In this document: positions 3,001 to 33,614 of the stretch, piece after piece
Numbering within the stretch: position 1 is the stretch's first letter
How the letters are laid out: each line of letters starts with the position of its first letter
Source: Marsupella aquatica
Taxonomy: Eukaryota > Plantae > Marchantiophyta
Direction of reading: 5' to 3'
DNA: 64,000 nucleotides
NCBI GenBank assembly: GCA_973895155.1
Contig: OZ316891.1
Location: 25,915,899 to 25,979,898, forward strand
Program-made: the position numbers and the translations under genes
The notes under the pieces: model-generated
Databases searched by the model: none
Seen by the model: the letters and a program-made list of their open reading frames with translations, nothing else
What the model was told of the DNA's origin: nothing

Positions 3001-3255
3001 GGGGGTTGAGAGGTGCATGTATTGTCTTTGTAAGAATCTATGGATATGACGTCTAAGGAATACGAGAGCCTTAGATTTGTTGGCTTTAGTTAACGGGTCT
3101 GGTTGGGGTTCGCCAGCTAGTATAGGTTGAGCCATCCCTATAGCTGGGAGTAAGGTTAGCGAGGTTAGGTTTTCTTTTAGGTTCATGGACCATTCTAGGT
3201 AGTTGCCGCCATCTATTTCTAGGGCAGGGAAGGTGAGTTTCTCAAGGTTGGCCAT
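45..3255 (-). pseudogene. Disrupted copia gag-pol polyprotein (gag 3255-2310, protease ~2313-1849, GAG-pre-integrase/integrase/RT 1799-45)
   Basis: One polyprotein split over several ORFs by stops (e.g. 2905, 1449, 45) and frameshifts. GGR-rich repeat and zinc-knuckle region near 2280-2480. Confidence 0.88.
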
Positions 3256-4633: not shown

Positions 4634-4647
4634 TCGTGCTGATAACG
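4634..4647 (-). other. Primer binding site of the Bianca-like element (CGTTATCAGCACGA)
   Basis: Plus strand TCGTGCTGATAACG abuts the LTR. It resembles the anticodon arm of tRNA-Ile, consistent with half-tRNA priming as recalled for this lineage. Confidence 0.75.
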
Positions 4648-4784
4648 TGTGAGAATAGAATGGAATGAACATGTGTATAGTCGGGAATAGGAGTACATAT
4701 AGTGGGACCAGGGTGACCGGCTGGTCCGGTCGTCCGGTCAAAGGTAGAGTCTAACAACTCCCTACTAATGTCTTTGTACACTCA
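4648..4784 (-). repeat. Short 5' LTR (~135 bp) of the Bianca-like element
   Basis: TG...CA ends immediately outside the PBS. Outer boundary is uncertain (4780 or 4784) because the partner LTR lies outside the window. Confidence 0.6.
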
Positions 4785-5344
4785 TCGCTCCCTGGAAAAG
4801 TTGTGATCATATTGGCTCCAACATGCTGACACAAATGTGCACTCCTCACTCCCAGCCTCATGGAACCTAGTACTTTAAGAGCCAACTCTTAAATAGCAGC
4901 CCTCAACATTGGGCCCTTAGCGCTTGCAAAACTATTGGGAAAAAGTAAAGCTGCTGTCCTGCAACGTGTCAAGTGCACAAAGGCTGTCTTGTCCCTTAGT
5001 TGTCTTTACCCCCTGAGCTTGTGCAAGGCACACTTTGTTTTATTTTGAAGTTTGAGGTGGGTAGCTCAAGGGCAGCCATGTTTCCAGCCCTTTCCCTTGG
5101 AACTCCAAAATTTGTGCCGTTAGGCTGGTACAGGAGGGGTTTCAAGGATGCAACTCTCTTCACTTATATGTTAGCATGAGTCAGATTCAGGGCCACATTC
5201 TTTAGGGCCGCTCACATGCAAGTTGGCTCTAAGACTTGCATGTAACCGGCCCTTTAAATTTGCAGCCCTTAAATCTCCCTGAACTGCCGGGAACGAGCCG
5301 TGGAGGGATGGACCAGGCCAATCCACGGTGCTGCTATGTATAAG

Positions 5345-5372
5345 GTAATCACGGTCTTGTCGACCGTTACCG
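5345..5372 (+). repeat. Left bipartite terminal inverted repeat
   Basis: GTAATCACGG (5345-5354), 11-nt spacer, GTTACCG (5366-5372). Confidence 0.7.
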
Positions 5373-5963
5373 GGGAGTAATAGGCACGACGCGGTTCTGA
5401 CACAGGCACGACCGGCTGGAAACCCCAATTTAAGGAATACTGAAGTATTAGATTAATTCCAATTTTATCTAAATATTATTAGTTAATGAATGATCAACCT
5501 CTTTAACATTTGGTGGGATAGTAAAAAACTTCAAATGTTTTGTTGCAAGATCTTTATAACAATGCATCACTAAATGACATCAAGTACCTCTTGATCCATG
5601 CACAAATCCTTAATTAAACTGTCATTCATTATTTGTTTTAATTGTCTATTTAATTACTATAGGGTTGAATACAAAAAAGATTGACACGCACCAGGGTGCG
5701 TGACCTACAATCATAGTAAGTACCACCCTTTAATTAGTTAGTTTCTTTACAACAATTAATAGGATTGTTGTATATTACAATGTCTACTGGACATTCATTT
5801 GAATGTCAATAATATCATGCCTTAATATCACCAAACTAAGGCCCCACTAACTAATATTATATCTTAAATAAACTAACCAACTTGTCTAAACTTGAGTTCT
5901 CTGGCTACTACTATTCTGAGTTGCCTTTTAAACTGTATGCTAAACTACATGCTTCATTACTGT

Positions 5964-8900
5964 CTAGGATTTGTCACTTGCTATGCATGTCAAGAGATAG
6001 TCTCTTGCCTTGGCAGCAACATTCTTTGGAATTCCTACTAGCCCTGTCACTGGTCCTTTGCGTGCTTTGAAACACCACAAGGCAGAGGAAACATCTATTG
6101 TCTCAGCTTCCTTGTATATTGGAGTTGGATCACGTTCCCATTTCTTATCCCAAGAATCTGCCCACCGCTCCCTTGGCTGCCAGTCTGATTGACCACGTTG
6201 CTTCTTTGCCATAAATGATCTAAACCACTCAACGCCACATACATGAGTAAGAAGGTTTTGTTCATTCACTGGTCCTTCTACCACATCTGTAACAACTAAC
6301 CCCATATGGACGGGATAAACATCCAGGTCTGAGTCGTCCAACCGTACCAACAAATAATAGCCCTTCACAACATCAACCCTAGGGTTAAAACTCTCAGGAG
6401 GTTTATCTTTTGCTGGTCCCACATAATCCACTGTTGCCTCCAACTCACATGCCACATTTCGATATTCTGGTGGAACGTGCTCTCTCCATATTGATAAAGG
6501 CCAAAACCCGTATTCCAAGTTGTGTGCACCTTCAGGTTCATATTGCACCTGCTCACCCTCTAGAGTATCTACAATGTCATTCCAATAATTGATGAGAGTT
6601 GTCCAACGTCGCTTTGGTTCTTCCTCTTTTGTTCGCTTTAGAATAAACTCAAAGAATGACACATGCTTCTTCAACCCTGTCAGCACTTCAGGAAGCATTT
6701 TCAACTCCATCATTGGTAGCCGTTTGGGCACCCCAATTGGGATGTGAGGACTTTTGTCATCTTTCCATGACCACATTTCAATACCTTCCTTGGGTAACCA
6801 TCCCTGATCAGTTGACTTCATTTTGTATTGGAAGCATGGCATACTATCATGACGAACATAGAACCTAAACAACCTGGGTTTTAAATGCCCCACCAATGCC
6901 TCAGGGCCCTTCAACATGAATGGAGCTAAGTAGTTTTTGAAATCTGGGACCTTCTGTAGAAAATGTGGGACTGCATTGGGTGTCCTTGCTCTCATGAACA
7001 AGGACATTAACTCAGGCAATGAGTATGTGGGGTTATGCATCATAGACTCTGAAAAATGCCCAAACATACCGTCAACGTCCTCATGAGTATGCCCAACCAC
7101 CATAAAACCAAGATGAACCTCTTCAAACACCTCCCTTGCTGTCAACAATGACAAATAAGCCATCATATATCTGTTCTTGTTGTCTGAGGCACAATTATCC
7201 AGTTGTAACTTCAATACTCGTGGAAGGGGCCTGAACTTTGGTGCCTCAAGTGCTGCATCACAATGTAACAATCTCAGAATGCTTTTAAATAAAACCCTAG
7301 TCAGACCCTAAACCCAATTTAGGGTTTAAACCCTATTAATGAAACCTTGGCTAGGAGGAGCAACAACTACACAAAGTAGAGTGTCAGTGTGTGTGAGCTT
7401 ATATTATTAAATAATAATAAATTAAAGGATTGTGAGTAAAGTACCTAGGCTTGAGATGTAGGCAATGTCATCCTCAAATGCTCTAAGGACACTTGCCTCC
7501 AAGATATCTTTTCTCCCAAAAAGGAGGTCTTTAAAAAGACTTGTCGAGTCTGGCCCCTCCACAAGTGATTTGATCATTGGATTTGGGTTTTCCAACATCC
7601 TTAGTATTGAATCAATTGACCTAATAGTGATGTTGACATCACCTGGCCACACTCCAACATGATATTGGGCTATGGCCTTGGGACCATGACCATGAGTAAG
7701 GATACCAGTGACAGTAATTGGGAACTTTTGGGCACCATCCACATGCTTAGGATTGAAGGGCATTCTTGGGAGAGTTGTCTTTGAATGATCCATCTTATCA
7801 TGAATAAGGCATAACACTTCCTTGGAACGATGGATGGACTCATATCTCCAGGTATGATAACACATTCTTTGCTGTGTGTGGTCTTGGTGATGTTCCTCCT
7901 CGTCACGCCTTAGGCCCTCTAACTCTTCCTTAGCTCCTGTAAGGTTTGCTTTCCGTTGAAGCAACTCACTACAAGTTGTACACTTTGAAAAGTTGTTGCC
8001 CTTTTTGTGACGTGAGAACTCCCTGAAATACATCTGATGTAGATGACTCAAGGTGGGTTGGGAAATTGGAGGAAGACCAGCCTCCTTGTTGACAACATTA
8101 ACCCTGTTTCTAATATTCTCCCAAATAAGATTCGTTGGCAATTCCCTCAAAACCATCCTTGTATTATCTGCCATGGTTCTCAACTTGGCTGGATGATGAT
8201 CAGCTGCCTCCTCAATAATCTCTTTCATTGACATGAATGCTTGAGATACTTTCTCGGACATACGCCTTTTTCCAACATTACCATGGGTACCTATGTTCAT
8301 TCCAGCCATCACAGTCTTCTTCAAGGCATAAAATTGAGTCTTTCCTCTTGAATGAATGATTCTCCATGCCTCCAAGCACAATACTTTGCCCTCCACTGCT
8401 AGAATCCTTTCTCTAGTACCCAAGTGTATTGTATTTTTAATAGCCTTGATTTCCTCCTCCTTGCGCTCCGCAAACGATTTTGACCACCACTTTTGCCTAA
8501 TTGCCATAGCCAAGTTGCGGTCCAAATATTGGCAACAATGTTCACTACAACAGTCCTTAGTGTTTATCAACAACACATCTTGACGTGCCAAAGATGTGTC
8601 TCTTCTAGATGTCTGGGAAGATGGACTCTTTCTTTTCCTACTTTTATGGACGTAGGACCGCTTGCCACTTGTTGGAGATGTGTTCCCTCCCACAGCTTGC
8701 CTGATGTTGTGGAAAGACAACAAGTTGCCATCCTTGGCAATGAGTTGGTCCATCGACCAAGCTTTTAAGCAATCTCTATGCTTCAGATGATCTATGATAG
8801 CTCCCTCTACAAAATCATTGATCAGAATTCCCACATGTGTATTCCCAAGGGTGACATCCCCAAGCTTCACTATAGGATCTAGAACATGTATAGTTGCCAC

Positions 8901-9353
8901 TGCAAAAATCAACTTGTTCTCATCCACCACCTTTATAGGCATGCCCATCCACAAGGCCTTTGGTAAAACTACTTCCACACCAGACCGACTCTCAGTATGG
9001 TTGTTCCCATCAGAATTTTGATTGACTGGATCTTGATCATCACCAACATTGCCAAACACATCCTCCGATTCCATGGGAGCTCGAAAAAGCTGATTCCTTT
9101 CCCATACAAGGTAACCCCCAATCATGTCCTTCAAAAGTTTGCCATCTTCGCATAGAATGGCCTCGTCAAAAACTTCCTCCAATAGAAGAAGAACTCTGTC
9201 CGCCCCAAGAGGAACATTGTGACAAACCCTGGAAGGATCAAGACTTATCACGCGACCTTTTCCAACCTGTTTCTCACGTATGCCTATAATAACTTGTTCG
9301 CCTTCCCTGATCCAGACTGTCGATGTCACCATAATAATTATGATCCTGCACAT
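5964..9353 (-). CDS. Spliced Sola-like (DUF7869-type) DDD transposase with two N-terminal Tnp1/En-Spm-like domains
   Basis: ORFs 9353-7422 and 7271-5964. Motifs CCxxxCC, FSKCTTC, LIHDKMDHSKTTLP (D1), LQLDNCASDNKN (D2), FMVVGHTHEDVD (D3). N-terminal VGKGRVISLDP..CHNVPLG-type domain occurs twice. GT donor at 7444; splicing between 7444 and ~7275 is not resolved. Confidence 0.8.
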
Positions 9354-9385
9354 CAGAGAATATCACTGTAAGCGTACAGTCCTGT

Positions 9386-10036
9386 CACGTCCGTCAACTT
9401 CACTGCACTGTCCTGTCACGTCGGTCAACAAGCAGAATGTAGTCAATGCACTGAACTGCACGCGACTGGTCGCGTGACCCTAGAGGTACCACACATACCG
9501 GCAATGACTACAATCGATTACGATCAATCATTTCACATCCACTCAGAAAAAATGAGTGGACAGTACCAGTTTACCAATGAGTGGACACTGGACAGTCAGT
9601 AACTACTGAGGACTGTAAGCAATAAGCGCCAGTAAAACGTCCGTGAACTGCATTGTCCTGTCACGACCGTCAACAAGTAAGCAGAATGAAGTCAATGCAC
9701 TGTCCTGTACGCAACTAGTCGCGTGACCTTAGTCAGAGGGTGTAGGGATAATAGGGTCTACAACATAGAAGCTAGAAGCCTAGGCCCAAACTCTAGCTCG
9801 TACTTGGTACTTCAGAAGTAAGAACGATTGCGCGTGAGACAGTAAGATACAATTACGGATCTGAAGGCATCACACATAGTTACCGGCAACAGATTATGCA
9901 TGGTCAGTCAATCATTTCAAGTGAATGAGAATGACTACAATCGATTACGAACAATCATTTCAATTCCACTCAGAAAAAATGAGTGGACAGTACCAGTTTA
10001 CCAATGAGTGGACACCGGACAGTCAGTAACTACTGA
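9386..10036. repeat. Interleaved direct repeats upstream of the transposase
   Basis: ~95-bp pair (~9386-9483 and ~9637-9732), each ending in the ACGC-N6-CGCGTGA palindrome. ~107-bp pair (~9503-9609 and ~9930-10036) containing the hairpin CCACTCA-GAAAAAA-TGAGTGG. Confidence 0.85.
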
Positions 10037-10352
10037 CCCTCATAAGCAATCTCAGTACTTCACTAGCAATCAGTATTCCCGGGGCGGTCGCCAAACGTGA
10101 AATTAAATGCAAAAATTGGAGGGCAACTGAACTTCCTGCCAATTCTAATACGCGCCAGTCAAATGTGCACTCTCTTCTAGAAACCACTATGTATAGTGAC
10201 TAGTGGAGACTAAACAGTATAAAGCATTGAGATGATCCCTACTGCTCATTCCCCCACGAATTCCACTTTCTGGCTACTGGATAATCTATTCGCACATCAG
10301 CTCTCTCATTTCCAATTCTTAGTCTCGGTCCGCATCCCTTGTTTGAAGGGCG

Positions 10353-10897
10353 ATGACTACTCCGCTGAGCTCGAAGAATGAGGATTTTCCGACGGATGAT
10401 TCAGAAGATTTGACGTATCGAATTCATGGTACTCCTTACAGAACGTGTCAGCGATGTAATATAATGTTTACGGTGACTAAATCGGGTCAAATGTTTTGTG
10501 AGAGACGCCATTGTTCGCCACATTTGTCGATGGAAGATCAGATGGAGAGCAATCCGACAGAGATGACAACAAAGATGGCACCAGGGGAGAAGTTAAAGGG
10601 CAAAGCCCTCGTCGAATCCGTTTCGGGGGGGGGGAGAAGTTGAAGGACAAAGCATGCGTCGAATACATTTCGGGTGAAGCAGCAGCAGACGCTAACACAG
10701 TCAAGAAGGAGGCCAAGAAAGTGGACGCTCCGAAGAAAAGGCAATTAGAGATGAACGAAGATTCTGATTTGTATTACAGAAAGAGCAAGCCGAGAAAATC
10801 TATGGACGTTAGGACTTGGGCAAAGGAAGAATTCCTGGATTCAAGGGAATCCACACCAGACATCGATGAGTGGATGACTTCATCTTGGAATGACTGA
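10353..10897 (+). CDS. Small Cys-rich (CxxC...CxxxxC) hypothetical cargo protein, frameshifted at a G10 run
   Basis: ORF 10353 ends GEKLKGKALVESVSG. The overlapping frame continues GEKLKDKACVEYISG, an internal repeat, across the G run at 10625-10634. Confidence 0.55.
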
Positions 10898-11144
10898 CTC
10901 GATCGAAGTCTACAATATTTTGAGTATTCAAAGATTAGATCTACAGATTCAAGAGTAGTTCAAGTTAGAACTTGTTATAGATACTGTGTAGCTTAATTTC
11001 GTCCCGTGGAAAATAGTGTTTGAAAGACCAGGTCAGTTAAATTCCTGGATAGTGCTAGTGGATATGGATTCCACATCCGAAGTCCTTCGGGATCGATGTA
11101 ACCATTTTAGCAATCAAGGAAAAATCTTCCACGAGATTCCTTTG

Positions 11145-12901
11145 GCCTCTAAAACATTAACGCGACCAGGCGAAGACGTTGGTTTTAAATTAGATTGCTG
11201 GCCAATTCTCTGGGCTGTCGACTACAATAAACAATATAAAAAAGACCTGAGATAAATTGGTTCACGCAACTGTACGCGTGATGAAGTACATGTGTAACCA
11301 AAAAAAGAGGTCATCCAACTAACAAGTTGAGATCAGTCAAATCTAAGAAATAAAGCGCGATTACGTTTAAGAGTGCAAAGCTTTCGATGACCTCTAAAAC
11401 ATTAACGCGACTGGGCGCGTCATGATACAAAGACGTTGGTTTTAGAATAGATTTTTGGCCAATTTGCTAGGCTTTCGACTACAATAAACAATACATAAAA
11501 AACCTGAGATAAATTGGTTCACGCGACTTTGCGCGTGATGAACTACATGTGTAACCAAAAAAACAGGTCATCCAACTAACAAGTTGAGATTAGTCAGATC
11601 TCAAAAATAAAGCGCGATTACGTTTAAGAGGGCAGACCTTTCGATGACCTCTAAAACATTAACGCGACCGGGTGCGTCATGATACAAGACGTTGGTTATA
11701 GAATAGATTTCTGGCCAATTTGCTAGGCTTTCGACTACAATAAACAATAATAAAAAACCTGAGATAAATTGGTTCACGCGACTTTGCGCGTGATGAACTA
11801 CATGTGTAACCAAAAAAACAGGTCATCCAACTAACAAGTTGAGATTAGTCAGATCTCAGAAATAAAGCGCGATTACGTTTAAGAGGGCAGAGATTTCGAT
11901 GACCTCTAAAACATTAACGCGACCGGGCGCGTGATGATACGAAGACGTTGGTCTTAGAATAGATTGCTGGCCAATTTTCTAGGCTGTCGACTACAATAAT
12001 CAATACATAAATTGGTTCACGCGACTGTGCGCGTGATGAACTACATGTGTAACCAAAAAAACAGGTCATCCAACTAACAAGTTGAGATCATTTAGATCTC
12101 AGAAATAAAGCACGATTACGTTTAAGAGGGCAGAGCTTTCGATGACCTCTAAAACATTAACGCGACCAGGCGCGTGATGATACGAAGACGTTAGTTTTAG
12201 AATAGATTGCTGGCCAATTTTCTAGGCTGTCGACTACAATAATCAATACATAAATTGGTTCACGCGACTGTGCGCGTGATGAACTACATGTGTAACCGAA
12301 AAAACAGGTCATCCAACTAACAAGTTGAGATCATTCAGATCTCAGAAATAAAGCACGATTACGTTTAAGAGGGCAGAGCTTTCGATGACCTCTAAAACAT
12401 TAACGCGACCGGGCGCGTGATGATACGAAGACGTTGGTTTTAGAATAGATTGCTGGATAATTTGCTAGGCTGTCGACTACAATAATCAATATAACCAGAG
12501 ATAAATTGGTTCACGTGACTGTGCGCGTGATGAACTACATGTGTAACCAAAAAAATAGGTCATCCAACTAACAAGTTGAGATCAGTCAGATCTCAGAAAT
12601 AAAGCGCGATTACGTTTAAGAGGGCAGAGCTTTCGATGACCTCTAAAACATTAACGCGACCGGGCGCGTGATGATACGAGACGTTGGTTTTAGAATAGAT
12701 TTTTGGCCAATTTTCTAGGCTGTCGACAACAATATAAAAAATACCTGAGATAAATTGGTTCACGCAACTGTGCGCGTGATGAACTACATGTGTAACTGAA
12801 AAATCAGGTCATCCTCCTAACTAGTTGAGATCAGTTGGATCTGAGAAATGGACCTCGATTACGTTTCATTTTGCTACGCCGTCGACTACAATAAACAATA
12901 C
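11145..12901. repeat. Tandem array 1: about 7 units of 243-257 bp
   Basis: Unit starts at ~11145, 11389, 11646, 11901, 12144, 12387 and 12638. Most units carry two palindromes, AACGCG-N6-CGCGT and TCACGCG-N6-CGCGTGA. Confidence 0.95.
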
Positions 12902-13679
12902 CAAAATGTACGGACAACTATAATTGAACGCCATACAATTTTAGACTAGAGAATTCATTCGGATCCTCTACTAGTACTTCTGATACATTGCTTCTATATT
13001 GGACTTGAAAAACGGATTGATCAAAATCGGAGTGTGGAATTGGACCATAACTTCATTGACTCAATTCATGCATTGAATGCGTGATTTAAGGCAACTATTC
13101 TCCTCATTTATTGCGGAATTAATGCTGATTGATACTTACAAGCTATTCAGTTGCGTGTGGACTCAGCGATGTTGGCGGCAACCCTTCGATGTTGGCGGAA
13201 ACCCTCCTCCCAGCAAAGCCTCTTCCTTCCAGCGTAGCCTCCTCCTTGTCCCAGCAAACTAATCCTCCTCCTTCGAACTCCAATTTCCTTGAGTATCGTG
13301 ACCGAATCCCACCACCAGAGAATGAAACCTTGTTGATCGTATCGAGATCAAAATCCTTGACCAGACAGTGATTTCAGACTAGCCGCACTTTGTTGGTCCG
13401 CTAGAATGCTTCGATGAATGAGGCAGACTGGAGGTTCTAAATCTTTTGTCGTCCCGCTTGATTGGATGTGCCCTCCCCAAGAATGGGATACAATAAGAAC
13501 TGCGCCAGCGTTGCTTGAATGAGCTCCGCCTCCGCCTGGAATAGTCGAATGATCCAATCTGCTCCACCTCAAATGTGCCTTGGATCAGCCTCCGCTGAGA
13601 GCCCAGCTAGTATCCTGGTCAGGAGAAACTGAAAATGAAGAATGATTCGTGAGCAATGAGATCAGTCTATTGACTCCAT

Positions 13680-14095
13680 GAGGGATGTGTTCATCTTGAC
13701 TCGATTTTGATTTTGAAAATTGGTTCAGTCTCCAGTCATGAGAATCATTGTACAAAATTTGGCATGATAGCTTCTTGAGTTTTGAATTGAGTTGCTATTC
13801 AACGCGCGAATAATCATACGGATCCGGTGTTCTCCACTTCCAAAATGGATTGATTTTGAATATCGGTTCTCCCCGACCATGAGAATCGTTTGACGTTGTT
13901 TAGAGTTTGGGTTTGAATTGGCAAGATAGAGAGTGGAGTATGGATCCGGATCTGACGGTCTCCACTACCAAAATGGAATGATTTTGAAGTTCGCCTCACT
14001 CCGATCGTGAGAAACTTGTCGTTCGTTCAGATTTTGGATTTGAATTGGCAGATATAGTGAAGATACGGATCCGGATCCGGGGGTCTCCACTAACA
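13680..14095. repeat. Degenerate ~125-bp tandem repeat, about 3 copies
   Basis: Recurring TTTGAATTG...TA(C/T)GGATCCGG...TCTCCACT..CAAAATGGA.TGATTTTGAA. Confidence 0.7.
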
Positions 14096-15562
14096 ATCTA
14101 TCGCAGTCGCATAATTACCGGTTTAAATTTCAAATTGGCGATCAAATAGAAATCTCCTTTACCGGAATCCTTTTGATTTTCCGTACTAATCTTTTTTTCA
14201 CGATTGCATAGTTTGTTGAGTCGTTGGTGGAGTGTACGGAGATCATCTGGAACCTTCTTGTCGCTAGGCTGTTATTAGGGTTATGCTAAAATGATACCCT
14301 AATTAGTCGTTCCTTAGTGTCGGCGCCCACGGTCTCGAGTTCACTGTTCATTGTTGTTGATTCTCGCTCCTAGACTTTTGCGCGCCTGCTCTCGTCGCTC
14401 TCGCTCTCACTCTCGTCGCTCTCGCTCTCGCTCCTGCCTTGGATTTCATTTTTGTCGTTGCAGCTCGTTCGTCGTGGTCAGGTGCTGGTCGGCGCGTTGC
14501 AGCTCTTAGTAGTTGTCGATCGTTTCGGTCAGGAGCTCGTTGGCTCGTTGCAGCTCGCATTTACAGCTCGTATTCACTTCTAGTTTGCTCGAAGGGATTC
14601 TTAGGAGCTCGTTGGGTTCGTTGCAGCTAGTTTGTTGGGAGTGTTCGTATCAGCTCGTGTCAGCCAATTTTAAGCTCATATCAGCTCGATCAACGTGTTT
14701 CAGCAGCTTGAACTACTTTTTGGCAGCTTGTTTCAGCTCCTTTCATTCATCATTCAGGTTTGTTTCAGCTCTTTCAATCTTCAGGTTTAGTGCGCTTTTA
14801 TTCATGCTCAGTTTGTCTATCGACAGCTTTGATTGTACTTCAGGAATAGTCTTTTTAACTCGACATAATGAGTTCCATAGCATTAAGCACATGTTATTCA
14901 ATTGGCAGCAACGAAGCTCTATATAGAAGCTGTGTTGTTGTTGCTTAGCATATTTACTTTCTGGAATGCCGCAGCAAGGTCTTCAAGTGCTTGGACGTCA
15001 ATCTCTCAAACGATTACAACACTTTTTCAGAATTCAGGTGCAATTTCTACATTTTCTGCTAGTGTTGATTGTTGTTTGCTAAAATTTCTGTTGATTGTTA
15101 AGCTGAGTTTGTCTGTAAACTCAAATATGTCTGAATCATACAAACTCACTAATTAAAATACAACCTGAATTGTATTAAGTAAGTCATTACAAACCTGCAC
15201 GCTGTGAAATTTAATCATATAAACTCTCATGTTATGTGAATCTCATTACACTGAATCATTTAATTGACGAATACAACCAGTAGACTGCTAAATTGAATCA
15301 TCTTAGCTTAATCATTCTCTAAACTGAATTCCATGCAATCTGAAAACTTCTGATATATAATAGTTTCACAATGACAGAGCTCAAACATCTGAGTTATTGT
15401 AAAGTTCACAAATGAATACTAGTGTGCTTGAATCCATTCAATAAATGCATCATTGCACTTTTCTAGTTCAAAACCTCATGCTTACTCGGATTTCCCTGTC
15501 CGTATGGGTCAGTAATCACAGTTGTATCACTGTATTATCCTAGTGTCCAAAAGTGGTTTGAG

Positions 15563-16840
15563 CTGTTGACGCGACCAGTCGCGTGAGAAGATTGTGAGGT
15601 TCCATTTTAGGGTCAATTGACGCGACCAGTCGCGTCTGAGGGAGCTCTCTCATTGACTGGTTCCGTTAGAGGAGGTATGGTTCCATTTAGGACCAGTCGC
15701 GTGTGAAGGAGACATGATAGATTATTGAGTGCGTTTAGGGTTTAGGGTTTAGGTTCAGTTGACGCGACCAGTCGCGTGTGAGGTAGCTCTCTCATTGACT
15801 TGTTCTATTATAGGTATGGTTCCATTTAGGATCAGTTGACGCGACCAGTCGCGTGTGAGAAGGAGAGGATAGATTATTGAGCGCGTATCATATCCAAATC
15901 TCCACAAGGGCGGTTCAGTGGATATAGTTGTTTAGGTTTAGTTGACGCGACCAGTCGTGTCTGAGGTAGGTCTCATTGACTAGTTCTGTTAGAGGTATGG
16001 TTCCATTTAGGATCAGTTGACGCGACCAGTCGCGTGTGAGAAGGAGGATAGATTATTGAGCGAGTACCATATCCAAATCTCCACAAGGGCGGTTCAGTTG
16101 ATATAGTTGTTTAGGTTCAGTTGACGCGACCAGTCGCGTGTGAGGTAGCTCTCTCATTGACTGGTTCTGTTAGAGGAGGTATGGTTCCATTTAGGATCAG
16201 TTGCCGCGACCAGTCGCGTGTGAGAAGGAAACAGGATAGATTATTGAGCGCGTATCATATCCAAATCTCCACAAGGGCGGTTCAGTGGATATAGTTGTTT
16301 AGGTTTAGTTGACGCGACCAGTCGTGTCTGAGGTAGGTCTCATTGACTGGTTCTGTTAGAGGTATGGTTCCATTTAGGATCAGTTGACGCGACCAGTCGC
16401 GTGTGAGAAGGAGGATAGATTATTGAGCGAGTACCATATCCAAATCTCCACAAGGAAGGTTCAGTTGATATAGTTGTTTAGGTTCAGTTGACGCAACCAG
16501 TCGCGTGTGAGGTAGCTCTCTCATTGACTGGTTCTGTTAGAGGAGGTAAGGTTCCATTTAGGATCAGTTGACGCGACTAGTCGCGTGTGAGAAGGAAACA
16601 GGATAGATTATTGAGCGCGTATCATATCCAAATCTCCACAAGGGCGGTTCAGTGGATATAGTTGTTTAGGTTTAGTTGACGCGACCAATCGCATCTAAGG
16701 TAGTTCTGTTAGAGGTATGGTTCCATTTAGGATCAGTTGACGCGACCAGTCGCGTCTGATATAGCTCTCTCATTGACTGGTTCACGTGACCCAAAAAATC
16801 ACAATCTCCAAAAGAATTGTTCAGTAGACGCGACCAGTCC
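15563..16840. repeat. Tandem array 2: about 15 copies of AGTTGACGCGACCAGTCGCGTG with alternating spacers and a 367-bp higher-order period
   Basis: Core at ~15568, 15619, 15761, 15838, 15944, 16019, 16123, 16203, 16311, 16386, 16490, 16570, 16678, 16739 and 16827. Spacing 75/104/80/108 repeats (15944 to 16311 to 16678). Confidence 0.95.
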
Positions 16841-16847
16841 ATTTGGC

Positions 16848-17399
16848 ATGGGGGAACCTGGTCTGGAGAGCTTCAGATATCTATGCCCAATATTTGACGT
16901 TTTGGACAGAAGCCAAGATGGTCTACTGGCGGGATATTCTGTATTTATTGAAACACTACTACCTGGACTTCCAGATTTCATTGTCGCGGAATTGATATGG
17001 CCTCGCATCAAGGAGTCCTTGAATTCCTCGGCTAATGCAGGAAATTTCTCAATAAAGGAATTGGATGAGTTTGTAGGACTATCTTCGGTATGTCGCAGAT
17101 GGCGCCACCTTGTTGGGAATACCTATCTTCTGGGTGTAATCAAGTTGACTTTATTAGATTTGGCTTCCCCAGGAAATCCTAGTAAACCAATCCGAAATGA
17201 GTCTCTCTCATCGACAGTTCAAAGTTTCTTCCAGAAATACCCAAGAATTAAATTCATGGGGTCAATGTCCAGAGATCTAAGGGAACTCTTCACGAAGACT
17301 TACGATGCTCTTCACCCTCTTGAAAAATGGAAATTTACAGTCAGATGCCACAAAGTTGGATACCTTGAGGGTGACATCTACGCTTTTAAGGAATTCTAG
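16848..17399 (+). CDS. F-box-like cargo protein 1
   Basis: LLPGLPDFIVAELIWP...LSSVCRRWRHLV resembles a plant F-box motif with an insertion. First ATG is at 16848; the upstream TTG start lies inside the array. Confidence 0.7.
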   Translation: MGEPGLESFRYLCPIFDVLDRSQDGLLAGYSVFIETLLPGLPDFIVAELIWPRIKESLNSSANAGNFSIKELDEFVGLSSVCRRWRHLVGNTYLLGVIKLTLLDLASPGNPSKPIRNESLSSTVQSFFQKYPRIKFMGSMSRDLRELFTKTYDALHPLEKWKFTVRCHKVGYLEGDIYAFKEF

Positions 17400-17463
17400 T
17401 TAACTTACGTGACCAAGCGCGTCGTATGTATTCTAACAATGTTTTGTATATGATAAAAGTAGG

Positions 17464-18030
17464 ATGAGCCAACTTTTGAATGAGGCTCGAGATTTCCTTT
17501 CATCTCATGAAAGGAAACAAAAAACAATATGGGATACGCTGGATGAAACCTCCTCTAGTCTCATTGGAGGAATACCAGATGTTTTGGTCATTTCAAACAT
17601 TTGGCCAATACTCTACAAACACTTTATTTCAATTGAAGAAGTGCCTGGATATCGACACCCCGAGATTGATTTGGTTATGGATAGGGTCCGAGATCTTATT
17701 CGGCTTGGAGCTTGTAGCAAGAAGTGGAACTTTTTAGTTACAAATACAAGGTTATGGGCTATCCTCAAACAAGCAAACCGGATTGTTGATGTCGCAAATG
17801 ATGCTCTTTACGACATACCCAAAACTGACGAGTTGGAGTTTGACTCAGTCTGTCGAGTTATTCGACAGGATATTTCTATGCTTCCAGAAATATCTGTTCT
17901 TGGGACTACTACTTCTGACGAAATTGCATTGTTTACCAACAAATATAATAATTTAGATGAGGAAGAACGAGATGTCCTAATCGAAAGGTTTGGTAGATTT
18001 TCTCAGAATCTCGGTGGTCCCAGTTCTTAA
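17464..18030 (+). CDS. F-box-like cargo protein 2
   Basis: LIGGIPDVLVISNIWP...LGACSKKWNFLV. Paralogous to its neighbours, with a shared C-terminal LDEEER-like motif. Confidence 0.7.
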   Translation: MSQLLNEARDFLSSHERKQKTIWDTLDETSSSLIGGIPDVLVISNIWPILYKHFISIEEVPGYRHPEIDLVMDRVRDLIRLGACSKKWNFLVTNTRLWAILKQANRIVDVANDALYDIPKTDELEFDSVCRVIRQDISMLPEISVLGTTTSDEIALFTNKYNNLDEEERDVLIERFGRFSQNLGGPSS

Positions 18031-18082
18031 TTGATAGGTTCTTGTTCTTAATCTTTTCCATATTATGTTGTAGTCCTTTGAC

Positions 18083-18595
18083 ATGAATCGAAAATCTCAT
18101 CGTCAAATGATGATGGAGCGCATTGCACGTGCAAAGGTTATGAACCGAAATATGATATGGAGTCAAGCTGAAGACCTGATACCCGGTCTTCCGGACGATA
18201 TTGTCAAGAAATATATTTGGCCATTAGTCAAAGAGTTTTTCCACTGTCTTGGGAATTTGTCGGATAATGCGATTAAAAATCGCGTCATGGACTTGATCGC
18301 CATTCGGACAGTCAGTAAGAAGTGGTGCCACATAGTTACTTATAGTAGTACTTGGGCGACGGTCACCTTGGTAGCTTACGACTTCACTGATAGACCACGA
18401 TATGAATTGCTTCGAAGGTATTTGACTTCACGGAATGTAGCATTCAGATTTACAGAATCCATCAGAACTTTCCCGCCGCTGGACATTCTGGGTGGATTTG
18501 TAGGATCTGAACTTGACACGTTTAGGAACCTTTGGTTTTGGTTAGATGAAGATGAGCGAAAGGATTGGGTCAGGGAAAACGTTCCTAAAATGTAA
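18083..18595 (+). CDS. F-box-like cargo protein 3
   Basis: LIPGLPDDIVKKYIWP...IRTVSKKWCHIV...LDEDER. Confidence 0.72.
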   Translation: MNRKSHRQMMMERIARAKVMNRNMIWSQAEDLIPGLPDDIVKKYIWPLVKEFFHCLGNLSDNAIKNRVMDLIAIRTVSKKWCHIVTYSSTWATVTLVAYDFTDRPRYELLRRYLTSRNVAFRFTESIRTFPPLDILGGFVGSELDTFRNLWFWLDEDERKDWVRENVPKM

Positions 18596-18670
18596 TTCGG
18601 CACGACGCGACCATGCGCGTGTTAGTATTTTATAATAAATGTTTAACTTTCAATATTTGTCTATTTCAGA

Positions 18671-21600
18671 ATGGATCATACCGGAACTTCAAAGCGGAAA
18701 AGAGACTCGTCTAAACCTGCTTCTCAAAAGAAAGCCAAGACAAGAACGACTCCCGCGGAGACATCCATACTTGCATATCGAGGAAAGTCAATCAGAGAGA
18801 GAACAACGGAGACAAAGAGTATCCATCTCTTTGATTCAACTGAGATATCCAATCTTGGAATAGTCGTTCACAATAGGGCTGTTCGTCTTGTGGTGGCAAA
18901 AAATGATAAAGCTACAGTTTTGGAGAGATCACAAATTCTTGGGTGTTTGTTTGAGAAGAGCATGAAAGTGAAAGAGTGTACAGAGGGATTGGTTCTGCTA
19001 GTCAGCGACGACCAGCAGGATGACAAAATAAGCATTTGTTTGGATCGAACGCAATATGTAACCTTCAATCAGTCCAGAATCGATGATCTTCTAGGTGCAA
19101 GGCACGCTTTGGAAAAGGTTACTAGTGTGGGATACCCTTCCGATCCAGAGGGATCAATGGGAGATTTGATTTGTCAATACATTATTGACGTACTTGAGTT
19201 CCAAAGAGTTCCTTTCAACCAGGGATTTCGCTTGGGAAAGGCCCCCCCAGTGACCAAGGTTGAAGTATACTCGGCGGAGAATCTTCCGAAAGTCATTACC
19301 TCAGCGAATGTCGGGGCTCTGTTCGATTCTTTCCTCAAAGAATATAGTGTTGTGAATATATTTAACAGCAAGTCATTTTTTGTTGAGACATCACGTTGTC
19401 ATCTTGCACCGGACCACATCAAGTGCCGAGAGTGGAATCAGGATTACACAGATAGGCTAAAGAATTCACTCCTCTCTCATTCGGCTATAAAGTTCGAAAA
19501 GCGATGCTGCTTTTTAGTCCATATGAAGTGGGTTCAGTCGGAGGTCGACAGAGATCCCGACTACAATGGGACACCCTATGATTCGGCGCCAACGGAGAAG
19601 GACATTATGACCAGTCATTTTTGGATACTCGGAGGCCAGCACACAATAATGGCGTACAAGTTGCTGAGGATGGACGACAAAGTCAGCCAAGTTGTTCGGG
19701 ACGCATGCGGTACAGTAGAAGCTGTAATGTTTTGGGCAACTCTCAACAACGACAATAATGTTCATTTGATGGGACTATCGAAGGCTCTGAACCACTGTCA
19801 TCAAACATCAATGGAAGAAGGACAGTTTCTCACCATTGTACGTCAGTGTCGTAATATCTGGAACTCATTCGGGCGGCCTGGATCACATTATCGTCATCCA
19901 AATGGGAAGGTATATAAATAACCCTCTTCCCTAAACCCTAAACATTATCTTTTAAATGTTTTCTCACGCAAATGGTCGCGTCAATCTTAGAATATTCATG
20001 TTTCCATTGTTTTTCAGGTATTTATGAGAGCTACGAGTTTTGTTTGCCCATGGGCTCAAATGGGGAAGAACGAAATGATGAAATTTGGAGAATTGGCTCC
20101 ATTTCTCTTTACAATGGAGGACGAAACATTCAAGAAGTGGATGGAGGTCTACAAACTATCAAGGACAGGAGAGCTTGTAATTTACAACGGAATTTTACAG
20201 AGAGACGCCGTCAAAATTGCGGATAATCCCTGTGCTTATCATCTCCTTAAGAAGACGTTCCGTTCTTGTCAAGGGTGCTTGGACTCGGTTCTTGGAAAGG
20301 CAGCGGAATATATGTTGAGCGGAAGACTATCTATACTCAAAAACCGAAGTATCAAAGTGAAATCTGGGAAGGCGAGGAAGTCCTCTGAGGCTCCGGTGTT
20401 GTCAACGACCAGCATGAGTTTGGAGCAATTCTGTATAAAGAAGAAGACGAAAGTTGAGTTTGAGATTTTATTATTGAGTAAACTCAACGGGGATACATCC
20501 ACCCGGACGGAGCTGAAAAGTCTGACAGATTCAGCGCGGAAATTGCGGGTCAACGGAATGATTGATCGCTTTAAGCTCGACAAGATGGTGCTGAAGCAGT
20601 TGAGAGATGCGTTGAGTGGTTATCTGAAGAAGTGCTTAAATGTAAATATTAGTAATGATAATTCGTTGAAGGAGATCGACCCGATATTCTACAGGTTGGT
20701 GGAAGGAATACAAAAATCAGTTGATAGTCAAGGAAACCAACTAGTGCGGCCGGTCGGTGAGAGGCTGAAATTGCGATCCCTGCAGGATATACAAAATGCT
20801 GGGTTTGCAGACTGTATCATACGTGAAGACAAGAACCTTGCGAGCTTGATTTATTTTGATCCCTCATCAATGGGAGATTTGCGTCCGCCAAATTGCTCAT
20901 TCTATGAGGGGTTATTTCGTGCTACTAGCAAGATAGGGGCAAAACCACACCATGTGGTTATTATTGTAGCCTCTCCCGTTGAGTCTTATTTAATCAAACG
21001 GGAATTAGGGAAGTACACACACTATGTTGCTGTCGATAGCCATTATATTCAGAAGCGGCCAAAGGAGAAGAAGCTTATTGTAACCTACGCTTTTCACAGC
21101 TTGGCCTTCAGCACAATGGGCGATCCACAAGCCCTCGAGTTCCAGTTGGTCTCCAAATATCGGATTGATAAGATAGCCAATTTTGAAGAGAGCGGCGAGT
21201 TCACGACACCTTCCCCAGAAAAGATACTTCCATTCTTTGAAAGTATTGTTAGTCAATTCGTCCAATGTGGGGAATGGGCTATATGCTTCGGCGAGGGAAC
21301 GAACTTGATCCAGTGCCTAATGGTAAGTTTTGAGATTTATATTTTGGGGTTTCGATTTTAAGATTATTTGGATTTTCATATTCTCAATTAATATTGTGAA
21401 CTAATTTTGGCTTGTTTTACAGGATGCTGGATCCAATGTAAAATATTACTGCCCTGTGGCAACGCATAAGGAGTTGTCTTATTTCTTGCAACACACCACG
21501 GCGACAATTGATACAATGCTGTCATTGATTGACCCAATACGGGCTAGTATAGAAAAATGTATAGATAAATTAATGAAGTACCGTCCATCTGTAACTGCTC

Positions 21601-23387
21601 TCAGGGCTGATGTCTTGGATGTCCTCCACGAACAACATATCCCAGATAATATTTGTAATCAATTATTGCAAGAGTATGCCCTCTTTGAAGATTCCAATCG
21701 ATTGTACATTCGACCAACGGAGTACCCTCGTGGGCCATTCCAAGGTAGGTTACTTTTGAACCCTCTTACTTTTTCTTGGGTCACGCGAACATGCGCGTGG
21801 ACATTCTCAACATTTCTTTCTAATCTAAAAATCTGATTTTCTTCAGATCAAGTCGAACACGGCTCCAATGTTGAGGATGCAGGGAGCAATGGTGATGCGG
21901 ATGGTAAGGGGGAAGGAGACGTGGAAGGTGACGTGGATGGGGATGTCAATGACCAAGATCCAGAGTGGATGACCGATACCCAGAATGACGTCGGATATTC
22001 CGACAAAAGCGAGGAAGAGAGTGACGGAGAGGAGATGAAGGACGCTGAGGACGCTGAGGACTCTGATGAAGAGGCCACACAGGAGCCTCATCATGAGGCG
22101 GACCAAGAGGAGGCGGCCCGGCAGGAGGACGCCCGGCAGGAGGCGGCCCGGCAGGAGGCGGCCCAGCAAGAGGAGCTTCAAAAGAAAGAGGCGGCCCGGC
22201 AAGAGGCGGCCCGGAAGGAGGACGCCCGGCAGGAGGAGGCCCGACAGGAGGAGGCCCGACAGGAGGCTGCCCGGAAGGAGGAAGCCCGGCAGGAGGAGGA
22301 GGCCTGGCAAGAGGAGGCCCGACAAGAGGAGGCCCGACAAGAGGCGGCCCGGCAAGAGGAGCTTCAAAAGAAGGAGGCTAAGAAGAAAAAGGCGGCAGCT
22401 AGAAAAGCAACTGCCGCAAAGAAGAAGGAAAAAGCCGACGCTGAGAAAGCCCAGGCGGAAAAAGCCCAAGCTGAAAAAGACGAGGCGGAGAAAGCCGAGG
22501 CTGAGAAAGCCCAGGCTGAGAAAGCCAAGGCTGAGAAAACCCAGGCTGAAAAAGACCAGGCGAAGAAAGCCCAGGCTGAGAAAGCCCAGGCCAAGAAAGC
22601 CGAGGCCGAGAAAGCGGAGGCGAAGAAAGCGGAGGCGGAGAAAGCGGAGGCTGAGAAAGCCCAGGCTGAGAAAGCCCAGGCTGAGAAAGCCGTGGCTAAG
22701 AAAGCCCAGGCTGAGAAAGCCCTTTTAGTGACCGAGGAAAATAGGGCCGAGGCGGAGAGTGCCGAGGCGGAGAGGCTGCTGGCCGAGAGGATGGCGGACC
22801 AGAGCGAACAGACCGCAAGACCGGAGAGGGAGGAGGCGGAGGAGGCGCAAAAGGTTGATTCCGCAAGACTGGAGAGAGAAGATACCGCAAGACTGGAGAG
22901 GGTGGAGGCGGAGAAGGTACAGGCAGCGAGGAGGGAGGCCGAGAGGGCCAAGGATCTTTCGCTTATTCCTGAAGCACAACGTCTACCGAAAATAAAGCTG
23001 AATTTGAAGAAGCCTTCTTCACCCTCGGTTGCAGTTAAGAAGAAAATATTAGACTATTTTCTTCGGCCGGAGTTTGAGTTTAACGATCCACCCTTAAGAA
23101 CGGTCTCGTTGGATGATTGGAATAAATATTCATCGGAGCAGCTCCGAGTCCAGGCTGTCTTGGCTTTGCAATATTGGAAGGGTCTTTTGATTACCGAGGA
23201 GAAGACTTCCACTGCATCCAGAATGGAGACAATCATCAATAATGTCCGATTTTCCGAGAATCGAGTGCAAGACCTGGGAATATCTCTGGCACCAGACTCG
23301 GCTCAAGTCGTTAAGAGACTAACAGCTGAGTTGACACGACCGGGTTTGTGGTCTCGACCCCGATATACTACAGAGGTCACTCGTGCG
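18671..23387 (+). CDS. Large four-exon cargo protein: ParB/Srx-like domain, degenerate N6/N4 DNA-methyltransferase-like domain, acidic tract and pentapeptide helical repeats; native C-terminus now inverted at 23443-23690
   Basis: Phase-compatible GT-AG introns at 19910-20017, 21323-21422 and 21745-21846 join four ORFs. ParB-like motifs CREWNQDYTDRLKNSL and FWILGGQHTIMA. MTase-like motifs LIYFDPSS and EKILPFFESIVSQFVQCGEWAICFGEGT. Confidence 0.72.
22105..22722 (+). repeat. Coding 15-bp minisatellite encoding (Q/K)EAAR/QEEAR then KA(Q/E)AE pentapeptides
   Basis: GGCCCGGCAGGAGGA-type and AAAGCCCAGGCTGAG-type units in frame within exon 4. Confidence 0.9.
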
Positions 23388-23423
23388 CTCGGGGGGGTCA
23401 CTATATGGAGGGTCATACATCGC
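23388..23423 (-). mobile_element. 36-bp terminal fragment of a CTCGGG-type MITE in reverse orientation
   Basis: Perfect reverse complement of 23983-24018. Confidence 0.9.
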
Positions 23424-23442
23424 TATGATAGAAACTTTAAGC

Positions 23443-23690
23443 TTATAGCTTGCGGATGACCTTTGGATTGGGTGGATCCGGCCTTTTCGCAGCTGATCTC
23501 TTGGGTGCCTCCTTCGCAACAACATCCTTCAGCCCTCCTCGAGCCCGCAGTGATCGCTCCAACGGACCAGTTTGCGAAGGTTGTAGCGATGAGGCGGGAA
23601 GACCTTCGAATGGTTGTGGCATTTGATTTAAATATTCAACAATCTGGGAATCCAATTCCAAAATATCCGGGGCCACAATTTCCGCGCGAG
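23443..23690 (-). other. Inverted native 3' end of the large ParB-like gene
   Basis: The minus strand begins CTCGCGCG, matching CTCGTGCG at 23380-23387 at 7/8 positions. It reads in frame ...EVTRA-EIVAPDILELDSQ...PKVIRKL*. Confidence 0.8.
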
Positions 23691-24018
23691 CTCGGGGGGG
23701 TCACTTCCACGGAAGTGACACATCACGTGCGACGAAGTATAGGCCCATTTAAATGGGTGTGGCAGAAGACTTCCAAAGTTTGGTGGAAGAACACATAGGG
23801 CATGTTTTATTGATTGGTCGACTTTAAAGAACACATAGGCCTATTTAATTGCAAAAAATACTTTCTATAAAGTTTTTAGGGGTTTTTTAATAAAAAATGA
23901 CAAAATTTTAAGAAAGAAAGGGCTTTGCAAAAAATTATTTTTCACTTTAAAGTTAGGGGGGTCAAACCCTAAAACGTCGCACGCGATGTATGACCCTCCA
24001 TATAGTGACCCCCCCGAG
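23691..24018 (+). mobile_element. ~330-bp MITE with CTCGGGGGGGTCACT TIRs; family makes 8-bp TSDs
   Basis: TIRs CTCGGGGGGGTCACT...AGTGACCCCCCCGAG. Related copies at 38741 and 42783. Confidence 0.88.
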
Positions 24019-24033
24019 TTTCGAATGGTACAG

Positions 24034-25293
24034 GTTGAAGTCTTAACAGAGCAGATGGAGACGGCAATCTTAGCAGACATTGACCATCAGCTGACCTATA
24101 GCCATGGATGTCAGAAGCGCTTGGCGTTCTTTTGTCTTGTCAAGTTGGGTTTGAGAGGAGGAGGGGAAATATGGAACTTGCATCGCAATGATCTGAAAAC
24201 CTGTCTGGACAAAGCAGGCAGGGAGTATGTCATGTAAGTATCCTTTTGAATCACTAACTTAACAAGTTTTTTCTTTCTGTGATCCCTGACTGCTCATATT
24301 ATGTGGTTTTCGTGTTCAGGTTTGAAGAGAGGGAGAGCAAAAACAACTCGTACACACTTCAGAAGTACCAAGAGGAGTAGTTTCGCAATGTCTTCCATAG
24401 TTACGATGAAGACTTCTTGATGACGGTGAAGCAGTACAAGCGGCATTTGCCACCTGAAGCAGAGACCGAGAAGCCTGACTTGTTCATGCAGGCTGTCACA
24501 AATCCAGCAGGGATTGTTTGGTACAACAAATGTCACAAGGTCGGGAGAGATACAGCTGGTAAGTGGCTAAAAAATATGGCTCTACTAGTAGGATTGACAC
24601 CTGAAGTATTCACCAATCGCAGTGGGAGAGATACTCTCATCACCCGAATGGCTGCTCGTGGAGTTCCTGATGAAGTTGGTATGCTAATCAGTGGACACCA
24701 TTCCACTGGGGGCTATTTGAGGTATGATCGAACACAGAGATTGAAGATGGAAGCAACTACATTAGTGTCTAGCAATCCTGCTCTGGATTACGAGAAAGCC
24801 TTGTCACATGTATCAAAGAAATTTGTTGCAGAGGAGCTGGTCGGATCTTGTTCTGGTTTGAAGCCGCTTGTAAGCAGGGTGAGCGAGAACTCTAATCTGC
24901 CGATGGCCATTACGAATCTCTTGCAGGTAAGTCGATGCAGTACTTTCTGATTTCTTGTGACTTGTTTACTGTAATCTCATTTTACTTATTCCTGCTATGA
25001 ATTGGCAGGTCCGAGAGGAACAACATATGGAGGAGAAAGGTCCTACAAATAGTTCGGATGGTTCAAACAGCAAGAGGTCGAGATGGGAGAGAAATTATGA
25101 CAACTTTGACTGGGAGAATGCAATTCTGACCAAGGATCCAGAGCTGTTTAAGAGAATGTCATCGCTACCGAAGTCACCACGTTCAGTAGGAAGTAATATG
25201 TCAGGGAATGCTTTCCATAATTGTAGTGTGACCATCAAGTTTGTTCATCCGAACAATGAGGAAGACAAGGAGAATAGTGTAGGTCCAAGCTAA
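24034..25293 (+). pseudogene. Crypton-type (DUF3504-like) tyrosine recombinase, 5'-truncated, with an in-frame stop
   Basis: Exons 24034-24233, 24320-24926 and 25009-25293 joined by phase-compatible GT-AG introns. Motifs LGLRGGGE (R), ESKNN (K), FTNRSGR (HxxR position), ISGHHS (H), YLRYDR (Y). TAG at 24378-24380. Confidence 0.85.
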
Positions 25294-25919
25294 TGGTGTA
25301 GATAGTGATAAGTCTCCATTGTTGAGACAGAGTTCTCATGTAGTCAGGCTAGTTATACAATTGCTTATACAGAATTATCCAGTAACTGTTCTACTGATTA
25401 TACATTTATCATGAACCTGAAGTATTCTTTTGTCACGTCATTTGGATTGATCAGTATTTTGGTCACCTTTCAATAAAACGGAATGATTTTTGTACATGAA
25501 ACTGTTTGAGTCTTTTGTGACCAAATTGTGTATACACTTTCCGTCTGGATTGTCACAAGAAATCACTATCAGCCATGACACAGAAATAAAACCTGCCAAG
25601 AAACACAAGCCGAGTGTCGCCCCCACTGGAAACCAGAACAGACGATGCTCCTATTGAGAAAACAGAAAAGGAGAAAAAGGATTGGAATAGCCATGATCAA
25701 GAGTAAACTGGCAACTGAGAAATGTATGTTCTCCGTTGAAAAATATGCCTTGTCCATCCACTCCTTATCCCTTTTCCATCCACTCCTTACAGGACTCCGT
25801 AAGGGCATTATGAATTTCCGTCAAAGCATTACAGGGTTTTGTAAAGGAATTATGGATTTTTGTTGTGTCAGGATGGAATATTATGGTAATGGGCATAATG
25901 GACGGAAAGTTTCACCCAA

Positions 25920-25948
25920 CGGTAACCGCACCACCAACCCGTGATTAC
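25920..25948 (-). repeat. Right bipartite terminal inverted repeat
   Basis: CGGTAAC (25920-25926), 12-nt spacer, CCGTGATTAC (25939-25948). Confidence 0.7.
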
Positions 25949-33385: not shown

Positions 33386-33614
33386 ACTAGGCTTCTCAGT
33401 TTGTTGGCGAGTGGTGCTCTAGTTCTTTTGTCATTGTTGGAAACTTTTGGGCTCTATGGCTCGTTGGAAGTTCTCAGTTTTACTGCGTTTTAGCTATTTG
33501 ACCTTTTTCAGTTTTTCCCTTGTTTACTCCCTTTTATTGGGTCTTCTGTCTTTGAGGTACTTTTATCTTGTCTCTTGGTTTGATAATTTTTGTTCTTTGG
33601 CAATGTGATATATT

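Follow-up and report, generated by a model that had tools for sequence, protein, structure and literature searches.

A recurrent palindrome as the candidate docking site of a ParB-like protein in a transposon of Marsupella aquatica

The locus and its palindromes

The window analyzed here is a 64-kb stretch of DNA (64,000 nucleotides, positions 25,915,899 to 25,979,898 of contig OZ316891.1, assembly GCA_973895155.1) from Marsupella aquatica (Marchantiophyta). It holds a transposon-like element with a DDE-type transposase gene, two tandem arrays, three F-box-like open reading frames (ORFs) and a spliced gene for a predicted ParB-like protein (Table 1). A palindrome composed of the half-sites ACGCG and CGCGT with six bases between them (ACGCG-N6-CGCGT) recurs in the element, and we regard it as the probable docking site of the ParB-like protein.

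Exact copies of the palindrome numbered 21 in the window, all at 9460–21798, compared with a mean of 0.00 and a maximum of 0 in 100 dinucleotide shuffles. Exact half-site pairs occurred at a spacer of 6 bases only, with none at spacers of 0–5 and 7–11, in agreement with the original prediction of a conserved 6-nt spacing. Together with 12 copies carrying one mismatch and one copy carrying two (at 5686), the total was 34, spanning 5686–21798, where roughly 35 had been predicted; the rest of the window contained none. The sites were partitioned into array 1 (13), array 2 (14) and seven single sites (5686, 9460, 9709, 17407, 18605, 19966 and 21783). The predicted count of about 13 for array 1 was thus reproduced, whereas the predicted 15 or so for array 2 turned out to be 14 full sites plus half-sites at 15698 and 16828. 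Single sites had been correctly placed at 9460, 9709, 17407 and 18605, but those given as 5685, 19964 and 21781 were off by 1–2 bases. Arrays, gaps and introns 1 and 3 of the ParB-like gene are marked as predicted, but the palindrome was absent from intron 2 of that gene, from the transposase intron and from the gap between F-box 2 and F-box 3.

When the window was scored with a weight matrix, the 34 sites reached 17–31 bits and the next-best position 8.1. Because tandem copies are not independent, the sites were reduced to nine classes, each of which was scored when left out of the matrix training. All nine left-out classes scored 10.9–27.7 bits, compared with background maxima of 3.5–4.9, and the palindromes arose about nine times independently, each time in non-coding DNA. 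In the gene-dense part at 16850–23690, four single sites were found against 0.09 expected (P about 2e-6), and all four sit in the 7.7% of this part that is non-coding (P about 3e-5). No full palindrome was detected with the weight matrix near the host genes of the 64-kb window.

The consensus of the 34 sites was about ACGCGAC-NN-G(T/G)CGCGT. The first spacer base was A in 33 of 34 sites and the second was C in 32 of 34, indicating that the spacer is constrained and forms part of the site; a free spacer, as implied by the earlier statement that the spacer sequence varies, was therefore rejected. The outer ACG and CGT were invariant in all nine classes, with flanks that diverge beyond a few bases, and five independent classes had an inner asymmetry in common, on the same strand.

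Contigs of four public runs (X1, X2, X4 and X5) were compared with 16700–27500 of the window. A 41-base piece with the site at 18605 was tandemly duplicated in X1 contigs (joint 18621 to 18581), and a 34-base piece with the site at 19966 was tandemly duplicated in X4 contigs (joint 19992 to 19959). Among the joints listed (15 of 103 and 12 of 51), there were two back-jumps that involve neither the array nor the low-complexity exon nor the miniature inverted-repeat transposable element (MITE), and each of them duplicates a short piece with a whole site. The VANC motifs of Arabidopsis have been reported to accumulate by such short tandem duplication (PMC5735166).

Table 1. Coordinates of palindromes, genes and other features, as positions in the window
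Feature	Position	Strand	Description
Decayed palindrome	5686..5701		Both inner CpGs mutated; 263 bases beyond the transposase stop; 18.6 bits when left out, background maximum 4.5
DUF7869 DDE-type transposase gene	5964..9332	-	Two exons; predicted intron about 7446-7300
Two palindromes (9460, 9709)	9460..9724		Both carried by a duplicated unit, immediately upstream of the start of the transposase
Small ORF	10353..10897	+	N-terminus with CxxC; frameshift in a G run near 10630
Array 1	11171..12866		6.8 units with a period of about 243; each unit has two types of site; 13 sites in all
Array 2	15560..16840		Two sites in each unit, 14 in all; period of about 180-188, with a higher-order period of 367
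Three tandem F-box-like ORFs	16848-17399, 17464-18030, 18083-18595	+	Pfam matches below cut-off (E 0.002-0.02)
Single palindrome	17407..17422		Between F-box 1 and F-box 2
Single palindrome	18605..18620		Precedes the ParB-like gene
Spliced ParB-like gene	18671..23387	+	Four exons; predicted GT-AG introns 19910-20017, 21323-21422, 21745-21845
Single palindrome	19966..19981		In intron 1 of the ParB-like gene
Single palindrome	21783..21798		In intron 3 of the ParB-like gene
Inverted piece	23388..23690	-	Opposite orientation in other copies; an 8-base duplication on either side (23380-23387, 23683-23690)
High-copy MITE	23691..24018		CTC...GAG ends; no palindrome
Separate low-depth element	24019..25948	+	Holds the 3' portion of a tyrosine recombinase gene that is broken; no palindrome

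The ParB-like gene, its neighbours and the limits of the element

The ParB-like gene encodes a ParB/Srx-fold domain at the end of exon 1, and acidic and 5-residue repeats in exon 4. A phmmer search with the 225 C-terminal residues of exon 1 as query returned 25 matches at E<=0.001, of which 21 were aligned (P0019, P0032, P0036 and P0038 were left out), and close relatives retain WIxGGQHT and LSxxLN. The alignment-based model of the N-domain had a predicted local distance difference test score (pLDDT) of 80.6, and the single-sequence model of exon 1 had a pLDDT of 33.6. With the N-domain model, the top Foldseek matches were ParB and Noc, the best being Caulobacter ParB (7bm8, E 5e-4), and VIA-align with Myxococcus ParB (7bnk) gave Z 10.0 and a root-mean-square deviation of 2.3 over 95 residues. 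Z scores were 8.7–10 against ParB and Noc, compared with 5.4–6.6 against sulfiredoxins. The ParB N-domain fold of the modelled exon 1 domain was thus confirmed by structure comparison, as the ParB-like label of the original prediction implied. The nearest ESM Atlas clusters were those of DUF3723 (0.95) and ParB_N (0.91). A separate search for homologues of exon 1 with greater length was negative, and no DUF3723 or DUF3435 match was found in Pfam. A metagenome scan with the ParB alignment yielded two loci; L001 was rejected as a wrong-frame match in a bacterial contig, and L002 is a 20-residue match in 1.2 kb.

The C-terminal half of exon 2 was close to N6_N4_Mtase (PF01555) clusters of the ESM Atlas (0.88), a lead towards a possible amino-methyltransferase-like, degenerate part. 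The catalytic motif of amino-methyltransferases is DPPY, and the corresponding position reads DPSS, DCSV and DSTL in three aligned sequences.

Exon 2 of the transposase matched PF25273 (Pfam, E 8e-37), contains LQLDNC and GHTHEDVD, and aligned to eight relatives with 29–39% identity; HDKMD is found in exon 1. We take DUF7869 to be Sola-like, and PF26133 stands beside it in 5 of 13 full-length relatives. A scan of viral contigs with the transposase as query gave no match. Unlike most of the element, the transposase gene is strongly depleted in CpG, with an observed/expected ratio (o/e) of about 0.3 that sets in abruptly close to the start codon. The part of the small ORF that was scanned had no Pfam match, and the 2.7-kb stretch between the arrays contains no convincing ORF. 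Besides the palindrome, self-BLAST found no match between array 1 and array 2. The F-box-like ORFs appear as diverged tandem transposon cargo, which might, by inference, steer a host protein to degradation. Telomere-type boxes (TTTAGGG / CCCTAAA) were seen in introns, non-coding parts and the MITE, at 7310–7335, 15733–15753, 19929–19942 and 23965–23973.

The summed contig depth over 16.7–23.5 kb, which does not equal copy number, was about 4,000–22,000 in X1, 1,200–3,800 in X2 and 6,600–33,000 in X4. In the same three runs, it was 130–980 over 24.3–25.7 kb and 15–80 in the flank beyond 26.1 kb; X5 was too shallow to judge. The contrast between 16.7–23.5 kb and 24.3–25.7 kb shows that these are two separate units. 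The right half of the palindrome-bearing element is multi-copy, and loose contig ends showed that array 2 runs on from the F-box part in other copies. Since palindromes lie on both sides of the transposase, the transposase and ParB halves are likely to be one element. A search of 4700–17000 for a left end resembling the MITE ends gave background scores only.

At the right side, an open frame lies within the inverted piece, as does a 36-base perfect match to the right end of the MITE, and the inversion of the piece was supported by an opposite-strand joint (23379/23690) in X4 and by loose ends in X1. In the region 23380–24018, one breakpoint of the 303-base inversion thus carries the 36 bases copied from the right end of the MITE, and the other carries a complete MITE, as would be expected if reversed-ends or sister-chromatid transposition had taken place. 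Two older MITE relatives lie at 38741–39018 and 42783–43070, and the former keeps a near-perfect 8-base target duplication.

The tyrosine recombinase matched the phrog_1 integrase (E 5e-4), and its gene is cut at 24018 by the MITE. The end of the recombinase element near 25948, which a contig break in X1 supports, is an imperfect inverted match to 5345. The imperfect inverted ends at 5345–5380 and 25910–25948 (GTAATCACGG), with no clear target duplication, probably delimit a low-copy tyrosine recombinase element, and the palindrome-bearing element is best read as nested in this separate element. The recombinase had been considered as a candidate binder in the original prediction; its own stretch lacks the palindrome, is cut by the MITE and had much lower depth in three of the four runs (the fourth being too shallow), and it was therefore rejected as a part of the palindrome-bearing unit.

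Elsewhere in the window, remnants of Copia-type long terminal repeat retrotransposons lie at 45–4757 (with Pfam matches to integrase and reverse transcriptase) and 33600–38600. A spliced tryptophan-rich host gene is on the minus strand at 28100–31300, with no Pfam match for the two exons scanned, and two similar dirigent-like genes are at 44236–46460 (Pfam E 1e-30 for the first). Together with the TTTAGGG boxes, the dirigent-like genes and the Copia elements point to a plant as the host.

Candidate binders of the palindrome

We consider that the palindrome is probably a family-specific docking site of the predicted ParB-like protein, by which the element would recognize and regulate its own copies, and that this regulation is probably directed against host silencing. 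A dimer of the protein would grip the two half-sites with a putative domain that follows the ParB fold, in the way that bacterial ParB holds parS. Local tandem duplication would raise the density of sites, as the two arrays, unrelated apart from the palindrome, and the duplicated single sites in sister copies suggest, and this density would enable the protein to locate the copies of its family and to regulate them. Once bound, the protein may serve to maintain transcription of the element or to lower its methylation, in the manner of VANC, and not to segregate it. Because the possible methyltransferase-like part lacks the catalytic motif, shielding or recruitment would be likelier than the writing of N4-methylcytosine or N6-methyladenine. 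The earlier proposal of a site for a dimeric protein encoded by the element accords with the fixed spacing, the non-coding positions, the several origins and the predicted ParB fold, and the recombinase is to be dropped from the candidates. A bolder version, which we find doubtful, is that a bacterial-type ParB clamp loads at the parS-like palindromes, spreads along the element and, with a catalytically dead methyltransferase fold, masks CpGs from methylation by the host, forming a second anti-silencing system, unrelated to VANC.

Several observations speak against docking by the ParB-like protein or against a protective function. In the palindrome core, 13 of 14 mismatches were C>T or G>A transitions in CpG, which implies that the palindromes were at times methylated. 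Within the arrays, CpG transitions amounted to 8/192 in the palindrome core and 5/138 at other CpGs (Fisher p=1.0), indicating that palindrome CpGs decay at the rate of other array CpGs; the special resistance of the CpG-rich core to decay, as originally predicted, was therefore rejected. Although the CpG o/e was 0.7–1.4 in most palindrome-bearing parts, compared with 0.30–0.32 in the site-free transposase exons, array 2 and its left flank were CpG-poor (o/e 0.27–0.52) when the palindromes were masked, which disfavours simple local protection, and F-box 1 had an o/e of only 0.56. The CpG footprint of the element is thus regional and mixed. In ParB CTPases (enzymes that hydrolyse cytidine triphosphate, CTP), the CTP-binding arginine patch is GxxRxxA, and the corresponding column reads GGQHT in 7 of 7 alignment rows, so that CTP-clamp behaviour is not to be assumed. 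For the likeness to methyltransferases, no match was obtained in Pfam, PHROG, PDB sequences or a phage tblastn search. An hhalign comparison of a 2–3 sequence profile with 18 bacterial methyltransferase domains (24 domains extracted from 29 loci, minus 6 over 300 residues) scored 18.1 against a shuffled maximum of 19.6; one short local match falls on a PTxKP-like motif, with an overall score not above shuffles. In addition, the link between the transposase and ParB halves is drawn from the common palindrome and the lack of a visible junction, with depth covering 16700 rightward, and the viral-contig and metagenome scans returned no homologous locus with flanks in which co-change of palindrome and protein could be followed.

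Other explanations assign the palindrome to a different protein or purpose. The transposase itself might bind the sites via its N-terminal repeated domain, as a TnpA-like signal for self-activation or synapsis. Sites do lie on both sides of its gene (5686; 9460 and 9709), and PF26133, which is presumably akin to TnpA-type domains, is present in the 5 of 13 relatives mentioned above. According to a 2026 preprint (10.64898/2026.08.24.746577), TnpA and plant transposases use clustered motifs to activate copies of themselves, but the TnpA motifs described there are non-palindromic and concentrated at the termini, whereas 27 of the 34 sites here are in two internal arrays. Moreover, there is no site near the right end at 23388–23423, and the MITE with the same end has none; binding by the transposase is thus unlikely. 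The ParB-like protein might instead bind for DNA mechanics, such as tethering or compacting excised copies, pairing ends or carriage through division, and not for regulation. Clustered 16-base palindromes resemble parS in form, and by the Z scores given above the fold is nearer to true ParB/Noc CTPases than to sulfiredoxin. We give this explanation little credence, considering that no ParA-like Pfam match was found among the 19 ORFs scanned, that the arginine patch is altered, and that sites in introns and at gene starts better suit regulation.

Recruitment of a host transcription factor with affinity for CGCG-box or ACG-type half-sites, with host activation borrowed by the element, would fit the CGCG box contained in each half-site, the 20-base span that resembles the ocs/as-1 layout, and the telomere-type boxes that recur in the non-coding parts of the element. 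However, TGACG was found on both flanks in 0 of 34 sites, and an as-1/ocs-type site was therefore rejected. Lone half-sites were barely enriched (13 in 18.4 kb compared with 18 in 45.7 kb) and not above two of four control pentamers, and the host genes of the window have no full site nearby, all of which makes a host factor quite improbable. It is very hard to credit that the palindrome has no binder and is a CpG-rich sequence passively spread by tandem and dispersed duplication. The tandem arrays, which hold 27 of the 34 sites, the same-strand inner asymmetry of five independent classes and a core that mutates like other CpGs would be expected from such spread, but in 9 of 9 classes the outer ACG and CGT do not vary despite differing flanks, and the four sites of the gene-dense part all avoid exons (P about 3e-5).

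Comparison with known systems

In form, the N-domain resembles bacterial ParB/parS and Noc/NBS proteins (7bnk, 6sdk, 7bm8 and 7ol9; Z 9–10), from which it differs by a sequence identity of 10–16%, by the replaced arginine patch and by the lack of a ParA among the ORFs scanned. In Arabidopsis, VANDAL elements carry a motif specific to the family, which tandem duplication has multiplied in introns, between genes and in other non-coding DNA (PMC5735166). Tandem duplication has likewise added copies of the palindrome in introns and elsewhere in non-coding DNA, and the analogy to VANC motif arrays drawn in the original prediction therefore holds for the layout. In contrast, VANC motifs are 8–9 bases long and non-palindromic, VANC contains DUF1985 and DUF287, and VANDAL is Mu-like, whereas Pfam gave no match to a Mutator-like transposase, DUF1985 or DUF287 in the ORFs scanned. 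Fungal Starships carry DUF3723 cargo genes (bioRxiv 10.1101/2021.12.13.472469), and the ParB-like domain resembles this cargo in its nearest ESM Atlas clusters (0.95) and in its place on a large mobile element. Unlike in Starships, Pfam DUF3723 and DUF3435 are missing, and the recombinase matches phrog_1 only, lies at the far end at a different depth and belongs to a separate element. An identity as VANDAL, Starship or complete ParABS was rejected, as no DUF1985/DUF287, no DUF3435 first gene and no ParA were found.

Closer parallels come from algae. Petroll et al. (2025; bioRxiv 10.1101/2025.02.11.637652) described 17–19 kb Plavaka elements of red algae (Bostrychia), in which PAG3 has a ParB-like N-terminus and tandem inverted-repeat arrays lie adjacent to its gene; self-binding by PAG3 was proposed there, with no test in section 8. 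Like them, the present element is a large DDE transposon that carries accessory genes, has inverted-repeat tandem arrays and encodes a protein whose N-terminal domain is ParB-like. It differs in its DUF7869 transposase, F-box-like cargo, single sites in introns and gaps, and plant host, and the Pfam scan gave no match to a 2-oxoglutarate (2OG) oxygenase or SET domain. In Ectocarpus, Sola1-1_Ec32, of a 21.5-kb Sola1 family, carries a ParB-methyltransferase gene opposite the transposase (PMC12477816). Here too, the size is about 20 kb, and the ParB-like gene is on the strand opposite the transposase and possibly has an amino-methyltransferase-like part behind the ParB domain, but an N4/N6 methyltransferase is predicted in Sola1-1_Ec32, whereas here the likeness is unconfirmed and the catalytic motif absent. 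The available text on Sola1-1_Ec32 (PMC12477816) mentions no palindrome arrays, which are present here. The Sola superfamily has terminal inverted repeats (TIRs) with a 4-base target duplication (PMC10741241); no counterpart of the 4-base duplication and 282-base TIRs of Sola1-1_Ec32 was matched in our element, and the sole target-type duplication seen was 8 bases long, at the MITE-type end.

In the available text on the Petroll and Ectocarpus elements, the algal proposal comes with no site sequence and no test. At the present locus, the site is resolved to the base, its candidate partner can be folded, and natural mutant sites exist in a plant that methylates CG, so that the docking idea is now open to test. 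If both binding and anti-silencing are true, plants have a second transposon self-protection system, bacterial in origin, and ParB clamps act on eukaryotic chromatin. We found no report of such an element from land plants, nor one on these domains, in the literature, in which subscription journals were mostly outside coverage. Of the traits of ParB-accessory transposons such as those with PAG3 and Sola1-1_Ec32, we found a DDE transposase with a ParB-like gene, in one element by inference, and inverted-repeat tandem arrays near the ParB-like gene. In its layout, the element is like these published ones. The pairing of a ParB-like protein with arrays is thus already published for red- and brown-algal transposons and is here extended to a land plant.

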